Shown: piece after piece, positions 60,130-64,000 of the stretch
Numbering within the stretch: position 1 is the first letter of the stretch
Layout of the letters: each line of letters begins with the position of its first letter
NCBI GenBank assembly: GCA_027306855.1
Contig: DAHUYZ010000006.1
Span: forward strand, 375-64,374
Direction of reading: 5' to 3'
DNA: 64,000 nucleotides
From: Solirubrobacterales bacterium
GTDB taxonomy: Bacteria; Actinomycetota; Thermoleophilia; Solirubrobacterales; Solirubrobacteraceae
The notes under the pieces: model-generated
The model's input: only the letters and a program-made list of their open reading frames with translations
Database searches by the model: none
What the model was told of the DNA's origin: nothing
Translations under genes and position numbers: made by a program

Positions 60130-60840
60130 TCATCGGCCGGCGGCTTGGCAACGTAAGGGCACGACTTCGGCGAGCTCGGGAGTGCGCTCGCCACGCAGCA
60201 CGCCATGATCGAGCGATAGGGCGCGGTCGGCACCTGAGAGGCCGGTCGCGTCGTCGGTCGCCGTGAGGATGGCGATGCCTTCGTCGGCAAGGGAGCGCAA
60301 CAGCAAGAGGATCTCATCGCGCTGAGAGAGGTCGACGTCGCGGATCGGGTCGTCGACGAGCAGCAGCGATGGCTCTCCTACGAGCGCGCGCGCGAGCGCG
60401 ACGCGCATCGCTTCTGAGCCGTCCAGCTCATGTGGCGCAAACGATGCGCATTCGCTCGCCTGCACCCGCGCGAGCGCTGCGAGGGCTCCTGAGCGCGCTT
60501 TGCGTTCGGAGGCGCCGCGCGCGAGCTGGGTGACGAGGAGCTCGTCGAGGACGCCGCGCGATTCCCCACCGTAGAGCCCGCGCTTGCAGTAGCCGATGCC
60601 GGCGCCGAGCGCTTGGGAGCCGGCCCGCAGCTCGCGTCCCTGAAAACGCACGATGCCCGCGTCGGGCGCCTCGATGCCGGCTGCGATGCGCAGCAGTGTC
60701 GAGCGTCCGCAGCGTCGGCGACCCCAGATCGCGACCAGCTCGCCCTCCTCTACATCGAGGCAGGCGTCGGCGAGCAGTACGTGCTCGCGCGTCCCGTTAC
60801 GCCGCCGCCGGCCGATGTGCCACAGTTCGAGCAGGCTCAT
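60130..60840 (-). CDS. Degenerate ABC ATP-binding-like protein
   Basis: GRRRCGRST (Arg replaces Lys), LDGSE signature, VDDP (no Glu), no H-loop His. Confidence 0.8.
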   Translation of the reverse strand: MSLLELWHIGRRRRNGTREHVLLADACLDVEEGELVAIWGRRRCGRSTLLRIAAGIEAPDAGIVRFQGRELRAGSQALGAGIGYCKRGLYGGESRGVLDELLVTQLARGASERKARSGALAALARVQASECASFAPHELDGSEAMRVALARALVGEPSLLLVDDPIRDVDLSQRDEILLLLRSLADEGIAILTATDDATGLSGADRALSLDHGVLRGERTPELAEVVPLRCQAAGR

Positions 60841-61457
60841 CGCGCGATCGAAGCCAATGTGTTCGCGCTCAGTTGAAGGCGTGCGTAGGCCACCCAGGCG
60901 AGCCGCGCCTCCAGCGCTAGGCGCTCGTCCTCGAGGCATAGGCGCTCGGAGAGCAGCGCGCCCGTGTCGGCGCCATCCCGGCTGTGGCCGCGCGAAGGCG
61001 TGGCCCTGCTTGCCTCGGAGAGGCACGCCTGCTCATAGCGGTCGAGCACGGCGAGCGCGCGATCGGGAGGGAGCATTGCGAGCTGGGAGGCGAACAGTCG
61101 CGAGCGCGTGCGGTCGTGCTCGACATGCGCTACGAGCCACGCTTGGAAGCTCTCGAGGCCCTGCTTGGTGACCCGGTAGTGCAGCTTTGGCTGGCGCGTC
61201 AAGGGGCTGTCGGACGGCAGGACGCGCTGGATGAGCCCCTTCTTTTCGAGCGCGTCGAGCGCGACGTAGATTTGCGAGGGGCTCGACAGTTCGAGCGACT
61301 CGCCGTATGTCCGTTCGAAGCGCTGGACGAGCTCGTAGCCGTAGGAGGCTCGCTGGATCACGAGGCCCAGCAGTGCCCAGTTGATTGGAGAGCGCATCTC
61401 GACGGTCGCCCGCTCGTGCGCTGCGAGCCCAGACTGCGATGCGACCCTCGCTCCCAT
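60837..61457 (-). CDS. PadR-family transcriptional regulator
   Basis: WALLGLV...YGYEL...SQIYVALDALEKKGLI...YRVTKQG; start may be ~61397. Confidence 0.9.
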   Translation of the reverse strand: MGARVASQSGLAAHERATVEMRSPINWALLGLVIQRASYGYELVQRFERTYGESLELSSPSQIYVALDALEKKGLIQRVLPSDSPLTRQPKLHYRVTKQGLESFQAWLVAHVEHDRTRSRLFASQLAMLPPDRALAVLDRYEQACLSEASRATPSRGHSRDGADTGALLSERLCLEDERLALEARLAWVAYARLQLSANTLASIAR

Positions 61458-61500
61458 CTGGGCCAAGACTAGCGCGACCGGCCAGCGCGGGCTACTCACA

Positions 61501-61518
61501 ATCTAGAAACTTCTAGAT
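61501..61518. promoter_or_regulatory. Inverted repeat ATCTAGAA-AC-TTCTAGAT, probable PadR operator
   Basis: Perfect 8-bp arms overlapping a TTCAGA-N18-TAGATT promoter-like sequence on the minus strand upstream of padR. Confidence 0.65.
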
Positions 61519-61706: not shown

Positions 61707-61812
61707 CTACCGCGAACCCGTCGGGGCGGTACGCCCAACCTGTTTGCAGACGTCGCGCGTCAGGCCGGGACCGATCTCGTTGTGTCGCGGCAGCGCGGCC
61801 ACCTCGTCTTTG
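61707..61812 (-). pseudogene. C-terminal remnant of a HicA-family toxin
   Basis: KDEVAALPRHNEIGPGLTRDVCKQVG matches the HicA xPRHxEI...CKQxG C-terminus; the N-terminus is replaced by repeat copy 1. Confidence 0.65.
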
Positions 61813-62060
61813 GCGGCGCGCCTCCGGCTCGCCCGGCCGATCTCGCTAACCAATCTTCCCCCCTCGTCCCGAACCTCCGGTTTCGGCACAGGAGTGGGAG
61901 TGGCAGTCAAAAGGGCAACGAGAGGTTGCCGTGGAAACTTTCATGGTCGCCTTCGGGCGGCCGGGATTGAAGTAAGTAACGAGTAACAAGTAACAGTGAA
62001 AAGTAAATCTCACTCAACCTCTGTCCTGGACCATGCCTTCTAGTCCGATAGCTGAGCGCC
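61809..62060 (+). repeat. Structured cassette-boundary element, copy 1
   Basis: Shares ordered blocks with copies 2 and 3: CGCTA-CCAATC, hairpin ending ACAGGAG, CAGTCAAAA, GGCAAC-N5-GTTGCC, CTTTCATGGTCGCC..ATTGAAGTAAGTAAC, CCATG and CTGAGCG. Confidence 0.92.
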
Positions 62061-62101
62061 TCAACCCGCGTCTACGCGCGATAGCTCTCAACGGCGGTCG
62101 C

Positions 62102-62515
62102 CTACCCCTCGCCGTCAGGCTCGGCGTCCGCCGGCTGGACGATTGTTTTGGCCCAGGCGATAGCCTCGGTGGCCCATTTGAGCGCCTGGTCGCGGTCGAG
62201 GCCGATCGGGACTTCAGATCCGTATCGCTCGTCGCGAGCGAATGGGTTCAGGTCTTCGACGTCGTCAAGCGCGGAAGGCAACTCGATCCCAGATTCCGCC
62301 GAGAAGCTCCTGAGGCGTTCGAGGTCGTGAGTGAAGGGGAATTCGGTTTCCTTTACCGCAAGCACGGCCTTGATGGCCTTCTCGACGGCTTGATGGCAGT
62401 GGAAACCGACGATTGGATCGGCGATCCCTTCGACTCGCAACATCGATTTAGCGGCAAGCTCATCTTCTTGGGCGGCACCGAGCAGCCGACGTGCGAGGTC
62501 GCCGTTCGTGGCCAT
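62102..62515 (-). CDS. HEPN domain protein (MNT-HEPN toxin partner)
   Basis: FHCHQAVEKAIKA, THDL and RY motifs; TAATG coupling to MNT. Confidence 0.9.
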   Translation of the reverse strand: MATNGDLARRLLGAAQEDELAAKSMLRVEGIADPIVGFHCHQAVEKAIKAVLAVKETEFPFTHDLERLRSFSAESGIELPSALDDVEDLNPFARDERYGSEVPIGLDRDQALKWATEAIAWAKTIVQPADAEPDGEG

Positions 62516-62829
62516 TATGCCGCGATCTCCCGGCCCTCACGCAGGGCGGAGTTGATTACGGTGCCGTACACGTCGCGCCACTCGCGCACGCTATCCTCGC
62601 TTCTGACGATCACATCGGCCCACACGCCGAGCCCTTTGAGGGTTCTGTGCAGCCGGACCGACTCCTTGGCCACGTCCTTCACCGACGGCTCGATCACGAG
62701 GAAGTCCAGATCTGAGTGCTTGCCGGCCTCGCCGCGGGCGTGGGAGCCGAACAGGATCACGCGGCTGCCCGACGGCGCGGCGGCGAGTATGCGCTGTCCC
62801 GCCTCCTGTATCACGGCGTCGTCGAACAT
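62515..62829 (-). CDS. Minimal nucleotidyltransferase (MNT)
   Basis: ILFGSHARG and SDLDFLV motifs; ATG 7 nt after TACAAT. Confidence 0.92.
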   Translation of the reverse strand: MFDDAVIQEAGQRILAAAPSGSRVILFGSHARGEAGKHSDLDFLVIEPSVKDVAKESVRLHRTLKGLGVWADVIVRSEDSVREWRDVYGTVINSALREGREIAA

Positions 62830-62903
62830 GCCGGGGATTGTACCGCGCCGTGGGGCCAAAGCCACGGGAGCGCTCTCCAAGGAGGCCCTTCCGGACGCGT
62901 CCC

Positions 62904-63110
62904 CGCTACCCAATCTTCCCCGCTCGTCTCGCACCTCCGGTGTCGAGACAGGAGCGGCAGTCAAAAAGGCAACGACAGGTTGCCGTGCAAACTTTCATGG
63001 TCGCCTTCGGGCGGCCAGGATTGAAGTAAGTAACAAGTAATGAGTAAAGCAAGTCTCGATCTACTCACTATCAATCTGAACCATGTCTTCCACCCCAACA
63101 CCTGAGCGCC
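62904..63110 (+). repeat. Structured cassette-boundary element, copy 2 (left edge may extend to ~62870)
   Basis: See copy 1. Confidence 0.92.
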
Positions 63111-63216
63111 TCTTGTGAAATTGGACGAACGAACTTTTCTGAGCAGCGCCGACTCACCGCGCTCGCTTCTTGCGGCAGGACGCGACGCGGCGCCCGCCTG
63201 TGAGGCTCATCGGGCC

Positions 63217-63420
63217 CTACCGGGGCCGGTACATGTCGCGCGTGACGCGGACGTTGGCTCGCAGACCCGTGGTGGCATACTTCAGGGCCGCCCGTTTTTC
63301 CTCGGGGGTCTTCGCCTTCGCGGGCACGAAGAGCTCGGCCAGCTCCTCGGGGCTGAGCCGCTCGATCTTCCCGTTGCTGGTCCGGGCTTTGCTGGTCTGC
63401 ACTTTGGCCATGCTCATCAT
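63217..63420 (-). CDS. Small hypothetical protein, orphan antitoxin-like (67 aa)
   Basis: AGGAG RBS 7 nt before ATG; helical with LSPEEL and KTPEEK motifs; no partner toxin follows. Confidence 0.6.
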   Translation of the reverse strand: MMSMAKVQTSKARTSNGKIERLSPEELAELFVPAKAKTPEEKRAALKYATTGLRANVRVTRDMYRPR

Positions 63421-63501
63421 GGTAGCTCTCCTGTCGGTCGACACGAAGCGACCGGATGCGATCGCCGTCCATGCACGCTACGCCCCGCAGGGGATGGGGA
63501 A

Positions 63502-63768
63502 TTTGCGGCGCGCCTCGGCCTCGGCCGATCTCCGAGGCGCCGAAGGCGCCCCGCTACCAATCATTTCACCTCGTCCCGCACCCGCAGGGCTGTCGGGACA
63601 GGAGCGCCAGTCAAAAGGGCAACCACAGGTTGCCGTGGAAACTTTCATGGTCGCCTGCGGGCGGGCGGAATTGAAGTAAGTAACAAGTGACGAGTAAAGT
63701 GAAAATCAAGTCTCTATCTACTCACTATCAATCTGAACCATGCAACCCTTTATCTCAATAGCTGAGCG
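63502..63768 (+). repeat. Structured cassette-boundary element, copy 3
   Basis: See copy 1; also shares TTTG(G)CGGCGCGCCTC..CGGCCGATCTC upstream with copy 1. Confidence 0.92.
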
Positions 63769-63817
63769 TTTCGTTGATGGAGGTGCGCTCGGGGCCATCG
63801 CGTTCCCCGGCGTTTCC

Positions 63818-64000
63818 TCAGCAGCTCGTGGCCGCGTTCAGGGCCCGGCAGACTTCGCTCATCTTTGCGGGGCCCAGCGAGGTGATGCGTTCGATCAGGA
63901 AGATCTTGTCCGCCGCATCGATCTGATCGGCGTTCAACGCACAGGCGCGCGGCATGCCGTCCTCGGGTCCGAGCTCGACCTCGGTGGGGAGACCGCGGAT
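63818..64000 (-). CDS. mazF: PemK/MazF-family toxin, C-terminal part (truncated by window edge; not in the ORF track)
   Basis: Translates IRGLPTEVELGPEDGMPRACALNADQI...ERITSLGPAKMSEVCRALNAATSC*, typical of actinobacterial MazF. Confidence 0.85.
   Translation of the reverse strand: MRGLPTEVELGPEDGMPRACALNADQIDAADKIFLIERITSLGPAKMSEVCRALNAATSC

Follow-up and report, generated by a model that had tools for sequence, protein, structure and literature searches.

Type II toxin-antitoxin genes are arranged in short successive cassettes at the right end of the stretch of DNA studied here, 64,000 nucleotides (nt) of contig DAHUYZ010000006.1 of a Solirubrobacterales bacterium (the whole stretch is called the window below). 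This contig, C226 in our numbering, belongs to an assembly of 2.23 Mb in 259 contigs, with 67.7% G+C. The cassettes are separated by copies of a non-coding element of about 215 nt, present in at least two or three arrays. The third hairpin of the element (h3) is a 36-nt unit that resembles the repeats of type I-G (formerly I-U) CRISPR systems. A 35-mer that forms the core of this unit had been singled out in an original prediction as a solitary CRISPR-repeat-like sequence. Our best explanation, tentative and held at slightly less than even confidence, is that a solitary type I-G-like repeat has been fixed, as a relic, in a recombining and insulating junction element of toxin-antitoxin arrays.

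The Toxin-Antitoxin Cassettes

The cassettes are all encoded on the minus strand, opposite to the orientation in which h3 reads like a CRISPR repeat. Their toxins are ordinary type II proteins that have protein antitoxins of their own (MNT/HEPN, MazF, HicAB, PIN, and RelE-like). The cassettes are co-oriented and measure 650–1170 base pairs (bp); the copies of the element are 650–1170 nt apart. In the window, the gene of an MNT-type nucleotidyltransferase, the antitoxin (62515..62829, minus strand; PF01909, E 8e-10), precedes a HEPN toxin gene (62102..62515, minus strand; PF05168, E 2e-15). The next cassette holds an antitoxin-like gene of 75 amino acids (63217..63444, minus strand), whose partner PIN toxin gene has been cut down to a start-plus-end stub at about 63150–63215. 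It is followed by a cassette made up of an antitoxin and MazF, of which the window contains the 3' part of the MazF/PemK toxin gene (63818..64000, minus strand; PF02452, E 1.6e-12), the gene running on beyond the window. Two unknown genes and HicA/HicB are also among the cassettes that the repeats separate. At the other side, a hicA toxin remnant without its 5' end (61707..61830, minus strand) is cut precisely where the first copy of the element has its left edge. Contig C211 carries an intact antitoxin and PIN cassette as well as an antitoxin with a RelE-like toxin.

Comparison of window positions 63112–63216 with C211:1226–1819, where the PIN gene is intact, shows that the stub keeps the first ~7 and the last ~12 codons. 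The identical deletion junction occurs at the end of contig C199.

The arrays are flanked by padR-ABC operons and by glycosyltransferase genes, a setting that is ordinary chromosomal in look, and no mobile-element genes were seen near the arrays.

A Modular Element Between the Cassettes

Alignment of six full copies defines an element of about 215 nt, extended to about 300 nt in copies that include a promoter module. Read on the plus strand, it begins with module A, composed of hairpins h1, h2, and h3, continues with an AT-rich tract of TAAYRAG heptads, and ends with module B, the invariant parts of which are CTGAACCATG and CTGAGCG. Three copies lie in the window, all on the plus strand. In copy 1 (61850..62070), h1 occupies positions 61866–61889 and h2 positions 61914–61930; h3 and the heptad tract follow, and module B reads CTGGACCATG...CTGAGCG. 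Copies 2 and 3 are at 62910..63112 and 63556..63770. Two compensatory changes preserve the pairing of h1. On the minus strand, that of the cassettes, h2 forms a terminator-like hairpin followed by CUUUUGA in every copy, including all three in the window.

The AT-rich tract (61973–62010, 63027–63055, and 63677–63715) contains three to five of the 7-nt TAAYRAG repeats per copy. These provide TAA stop codons in all three frames of the plus strand and read as TTAC repeats on the minus strand. Because the number of heptads differs between copies, the tract holds no consistent −35/−10 promoter on either strand.

In three copies, the similarity runs on leftward, through a GC palindrome, into a promoter-like sequence, GTGGCTT-N16-TAC(C/A)AT, which ends 7–8 nt 5' of the ATG of three unrelated genes or cassettes. 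In the window, this module (62830..62909, minus strand) precedes the MNT/HEPN cassette. It consists of GTGGCTT, 16 nt, TACAAT and 7 nt to the ATG, so that the predicted transcript would be leaderless, and it is common to two unrelated cassettes outside the window. To judge from sequence, the repeat thus seems to provide every cassette with a leaderless promoter of its own. The GC palindrome between module A and the cassette promoter is a perfect 22-nt one, GGACGCGCTGGCCAGCGCGTCC, in two copies (C226:64760–64850 and C211:2075–2160) and a shorter one, GGACGCGTCC, in the window (62886–62895).

Not all junctions have the full element. At least five further ones, at C226:66018, at the end of C226, and on C199, C255, and C211, carry module B only, and hence no h3. 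In these, module B is preceded by CACAAAGCTTG or by what appears to be a deletion derivative of module A.

A conserved ATG in module B was considered as a gene start. It has neither a ribosome-binding site nor a −10 box, and conservation stops about 30 nt further on; the region is therefore treated as non-coding. The window yielded no Rfam family at gathering scores, with only noise at E-values up to 10, and no tRNA or tmRNA was found.

No homologue of the element was obtained with blastn in 60 relatives, a covariance model of the whole element had no match in 120 genomes of the genus, and exact degenerate patterns of the element were absent from genome, viral, and metagenome collections. The sole external trace is a 1-kb Logan contig with the same HEPN gene.

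The 36-nt Unit

The 35-mer, CTTTCATGGTCGCCTTCGGGCGGCCGGGATTGAAG, is on the plus strand at 61938–61972, with a copy at 62992–63026 that has one mismatch and another at 63642–63676 that has three, exactly as had been reported. None is expected by chance, as judged from 100 dinucleotide-preserving shuffles. Three further copies are found in the same genome outside the window, one at C226:64935 and two on C211. The natural unit is nevertheless of 36 nt, CTTTCATGGTCGCCTTCGGGCGGCCAGGATTGAAGT, since comparison with real repeats shows the following base (T, in one copy C) to be part of the unit. The units are therefore at 61938..61973, 62992..63027, and 63642..63677, all on the plus strand; the third is the most diverged, with one stem pair broken. 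The 36-mer is not a free-standing motif but hairpin h3 of the element. In copy 1, it forms an 8-bp stem closed by a UUCG loop, followed by GGAUUGAAGU.

The claims that the 35-mer is the best-conserved block and that the sequence downstream of it is conserved rather than spacer-like both hold. Across the six full copies, the 36-mer region has a mean pairwise identity of 0.93, against 0.69–0.85 in the remainder of the element, with the neighbouring h2 at 0.94, and the alignment extends through the downstream sequence.

The fold of h3 depends on the strand. In five of the six copies, the folding energy is −14 to −18 kcal/mol for the plus strand, the one in CRISPR orientation, and −7.5 to −11 kcal/mol for the minus strand, a difference of 5–7 kcal/mol in favor of the former. 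The loop is C(UNCG)G, again in five copies out of six. On the plus strand, the 3' end of the unit, corresponding to the handle of a CRISPR repeat, is followed by an unstructured AU-rich stretch.

Resemblance to Type I-G CRISPR Repeats

For comparison, cas1-bearing loci of the genus and of the family were fetched and repeats were derived from their arrays. Cas1 is present in 19 of 201 sampled genomes of the family and in 8 of 201 genomes of the genus (4%). In G071, of the same genus, the locus comprises Cas4g/Cas1g (788 bits), Cas2, a leader, and the array, and the repeat read from the leader is CTCTCCGTCGCTGAATGGCGACGGCCCCATTGAAGC. In G185, of the same family, the repeat is CTCTCGTCGCCTTCGAGGCGGCGAGTTCATCGAGGC and adjoins genes for Cas4g/Cas1g, Cas3g, Csb2, and Csb1. 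The cas-linked type I-G repeats of the genus and family are 36 nt long, start with CTCTC, have a central GC hairpin and end with ATTGAAGC.

The 36-mer shares with these repeats its length, a 5' CTYTC, a central hairpin and an 8-nt 3' handle, AUUGAAGY, in which the G at position 7 is typical of the type I-G repeats of this clade. In both, the hairpin is a GC stem of 8–9 bp with a loop of 4–5 nt, and the orientation relative to fold stability is the same. The stem-loop matches that of the G185 repeat at 18 of 20 bases, including a U-G wobble. Over the whole unit, 26/36 positions agree with G185 and 24/36 with G071 (67–72% identity), the stems being out of register in the alignment. Unlike type I-G repeats, the 36-mer is solitary: it is in no 70-nt periodic array, has conserved flanks in place of spacers and is accompanied neither by a leader nor by cas genes.

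The local score of the 36-mer against the G185 repeat is 30, compared with 11.9 ± 2.6 in shuffled sequences, and none of 2000 shuffles reaches 30. Shuffles are, however, too easy a control for hairpins, and all other hairpins of this genome were therefore used as a null, scored against 8–13 family repeats. Only the plus orientation of h3 is exceptional; the scores of the h1 and h2 units are those of the null. The combination of h2 with GTGGAAAC was considered as a second degenerate repeat, and its similarity is also at the null level.

Several facts weigh against CRISPR ancestry and against the relic reading built on it. Among random hairpins of this genome, 0.7% by local score and 1.5% end to end are as similar to a family repeat as h3 is, that is, about 90–250 hairpins per genome. 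About 12 chance occurrences of a hairpin followed by ATTGAAR are found in the genome. The signature CTYTC-N23-ATTGAAGY is expected only 0.04 times per genome and is present only in the six elements, but its 5' CTYTC part was chosen after the repeats had been seen. None of 400 genomes of the family has a CRISPR array with GATTGAAG. In addition, the 36-mer and h2 being the best-conserved blocks suits present selection better than a pure relic. Because the element is found in one genome only, cross-species covariation or cassette turnover provides no evidence. Finally, the assembly is of 2.2 Mb, compared with 3–4.5 Mb in congeners, and a cas locus may be missing from it.

The type I-C idea was also tried: the same 400 family genomes provided no GATTGAAG repeats, and no array of the form GTCGC...GGATTGAAR was found in 120 congeners.

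The resemblance might thus be fortuitous. In that case, h3 would be simply another GC-rich hairpin, among several, in a structured intergenic repeat that acts as a terminator, an insulator or an RNA-stability module, and it would have an accidental ATTGAAG tail and no CRISPR ancestry. The hairpin null favors this explanation, as do the ~12 unrelated hairpins followed by ATTGAAR. Moreover, GC stems capped by C(UUCG)G are common, h1 and h2 are not CRISPR-like, the junctions with module B only manage without h3, and the assembly has no cas genes. It has to account for the coincidence of independent features, namely the length of 36 nt, the in-register 5' CTYTC, the stem-loop with 18 of 20 bases and the wobble in common, and, at position 7 of the handle, a G that is specific to the genus, and for a strand asymmetry that favors exactly the CRISPR orientation. 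We consider chance resemblance a serious possibility, but on balance an unlikely one. The original suggestion of a likeness to class 1 CRISPR repeats can be kept as far as length, 5' CTYTC, hairpin, and 3' end are concerned, where the 36-mer agrees with cas-linked type I-G repeats, with the reservation that its significance is only moderate. The likeness appears real but moderate, and we lean, with modest confidence, towards a 36-mer that is truly derived from a type I-G repeat or mimics one.

Type I-G systems are patchy in the genus, where degenerate arrays that have spacers of normal length are common; such arrays occur in several congeners, and cas1 was not detected in those screened. A stranded repeat is therefore plausible. 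The solitary beta-type repeats considered in congeners turned out to be nearly all parts of degenerate arrays with normal spacers.

Four loci, L132, L133, L135, and L136 (genomes G032, G629, G614, and G098), correspond to degenerate type I-G arrays in which neighbouring stems differ in sequence yet remain paired (GGGG/CCCC vs. GAGG/CCTC). G032 has two degenerate clusters in opposite orientation, 7.2 kb apart. One congener (L134, G600:C1, 5254–5295, minus strand) has a type I-G-like repeat, GTCACCGGAGACTCAGATCTCCGGCTCAGTTGAAGC, that is truly solitary; a toxin-antitoxin pair of the Phd/VapC type is encoded on the same strand at a distance of about 660 nt. In G601 (C1:141867–141902), a lone type I-G repeat, 2.2 kb ahead of the array proper, is located upstream of the Cas4g/Cas1g gene and may be an ectopic regulatory repeat within a cas locus.

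Cas Partner, Guide Role, and Targets

No homologue of Cas1 or Cas6 was found in the assembly (no match to the PF01867 and PF01881 profiles), type I-G Cas proteins gave no tblastn match in it, and a k-mer scan of the whole assembly revealed no CRISPR array. The copies of the 36-mer, spaced by 650–1170 nt and not with a period of about 60–80 nt, have conserved flanks instead of unique spacers; as had been anticipated, they do not form an adaptive array. The 40 nt that follow ATTGAAG have no match longer than 13 nt outside the elements anywhere in the genome, cassette promoters included. Conversely, among 343 spacers from relatives, none has a near-full match to this genome and none matches the array.

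Since neither a Cas partner nor a target was found in this genome, the 36-mer is probably not acting here as a guide resembling a CRISPR RNA (crRNA). The idea that it could be a Cas6-processed regulatory or guide RNA linked to toxin-antitoxin control was not borne out: the checks for cas6 and effector genes and for targets were negative in this assembly, cas-bearing type I-G loci are only sporadic in the genus, and some junctions do without the hairpin.

The same results bear on two RNA-based explanations. In the first, the unit and the conserved sequence downstream of it would be a crRNA-like RNA that directs Cascade to a toxin or defence promoter for repression, as a guard of the CreTA or crlRNA type. 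Systems of this kind have been described (PMC9458426; Shmakov et al., 2023 preprint 10.1101/2023.03.03.530964), and the locus is like them in having an ectopic repeat beside toxin genes, here with a conserved downstream sequence. It differs from them in that there is no adjacent cas operon, nor any cas gene in the assembly, no target for a pseudo-spacer, cassette promoters included, and in that the toxins are ordinary type II proteins neutralized by protein antitoxins. This explanation is already largely refuted, and we regard it as extremely improbable.

In the second, the units would be active on the plus strand, where the type I-G Cas5-Cas6 protein (Csb2) would bind or cut them. They could be multi-copy decoys that protect an island stabilized by toxin-antitoxin genes, or processing sites in a long antisense transcript. 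The repeat-like architecture of the plus strand, with its unstructured AU-rich stretch after the handle, would fit this role, as would the conservation of the unit and the existence of type I-G systems in the genus and family; the incomplete assembly may lack a cas locus. Mobile elements are known to carry solitary repeat units as decoys, the RNA anti-CRISPRs or Racrs (Camara-Wilpert et al., 2023, PMC10651486). As in these, a single intergenic repeat look-alike is unlinked to cas genes or to other repeats. In contrast to them, the look-alike is here in at least six copies, each within a 215-nt element between toxin-antitoxin cassettes, in a context that looks chromosomal and not phage- or plasmid-borne, next to ordinary padR-ABC operons, and in a host assembly without CRISPR-Cas. 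Further arguments against a Cas-dependent RNA are that Cas1 is found in only 4% of the genus, that no relative's spacer matches the array, and that a consensus scan found no promoter-like site on the plus strand upstream of h3. We hold this explanation to be distinctly unlikely.

Recombination Between Copies and Gene-Cassette Systems

The copies of the element are mosaics. A GGAGT/GGAGC linker variant is combined with two types of a segment called B1 in all four possible ways, and all four combinations of B1 and B2 segment variants are also present among the copies. Hence, the copies recombine with one another.

Small co-oriented cassettes separated by a species-specific structured repeat evoke integrons, and one may ask whether the element serves a tyrosine recombinase as an attC-type site of unusual length. 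The cassettes of sedentary chromosomal integrons (attC arrays, CALIN; PMC4889954, PMC13108822) are likewise small and co-oriented, many of them are toxin-antitoxin cassettes with their own promoters, and the structured repeat is homogeneous within a species. Here, cassettes of 650–1170 bp run off contig ends, and an integrase could be missing. However, the assembly has no IntI; the best match to TIGR02249 reaches 72 + 64 bits for a cut-off of 265 and is Xer-like. Furthermore, the ends of the element lack the inverted core sites of attC (RYYYAAC ... GTTRRRY): CGCTAAC, with its AAC triplet, is at the left end of only three of the six copies, and the right end is an invariant CTGAGCG, not GTTRRRY. 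The consensus folds into a multi-branched structure and not into a single imperfect hairpin, the size of 215–300 nt is far above the usual attC sizes, and homology reaches the start codon of the next gene, the repeat containing the putative promoter of that cassette. An integron-like array is therefore very improbable.

The element may also be compared with modular intergenic repeats. BOX and ERIC repeats are likewise modular (A/B), structured, located in intergenic or untranslated regions and, in some copies, devoid of certain modules. Unlike the present element, which is confined to arrays of toxin-antitoxin cassettes, they are dispersed through the genome.

A last possibility is that a type I-G CRISPR array was the ancestor of these arrays, or that they exploit the repeat of such an array. 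Cassettes would then occupy the positions of spacers, and the gain, loss or exchange of cassettes would take place at a joint formed by the repeat with its duplicated flanks. In a variant of this idea, the six or more units would be a multi-copy decoy against type I-G systems as the island moves between strains. We find this possibility rather improbable. If true, it would reveal a cas-less gene-cassette platform, integron-like yet built on a CRISPR repeat.

Operons Beside the Arrays

Three diverged padR-ABC operons, encoding permeases of the FtsX type, are found in the window (60837–61499, minus strand), on C211 (2850–3443, plus strand), and on C199 (817–1560, plus strand). Each adjoins a toxin-antitoxin cassette array or the end of one, in the same relative orientation. 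The PadR proteins of C226 and C211 are 52% identical and that of C199 is more diverged; the adjacent junction elements are 80–90% identical. No sequence common to the junctions between padR-ABC operons and arrays was found. Just upstream of padR in the window, a perfect palindrome, ATCTAGAAACTTCTAGAT (61499–61518), is likely the PadR operator, and CTAGAA..TTCTAG motifs resembling it are located upstream of padR homologues in a relative (L073). Comparable arrays were sought in the padR neighbourhoods of 10 relatives; none was found, and one repeat-rich locus proved to be a tandem gene duplication.

A Model for the Element and Its Implications

In the model that we favor, a solitary type I-G-like repeat, probably a relic and possibly a mimic, was captured in the junction element and then copied along with it. 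On the minus strand, the element is located between the stop codon of one cassette and the putative leaderless promoter of the next. Its run of hairpins, two of which are followed by short U-tracts, probably insulates the cassettes from read-through. Most economically, the element would be an intergenic scaffold of the array that ends read-through from a cassette and initiates the following one, the CRISPR-like hairpin being either a passenger or a stable hairpin co-opted for the purpose. As the copies are long direct repeats, 80–90% identical, ordinary homologous recombination may add, drop or reshuffle cassettes.

Solitary CRISPR repeats are known as decoys of phages and plasmids and as regulators beside cas genes. 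Here, a look-alike is a fixed part of the junctions of a chromosomal toxin-antitoxin array, with no detectable CRISPR-Cas system. The array itself would be a cassette system without an integron integrase, in which the junction seems to carry the promoter of the next cassette and its copies recombine with one another. If the CRISPR ancestry of the 36-mer is true, repeats can outlive their system within other repeat elements, which would link CRISPR arrays and gene-cassette arrays.

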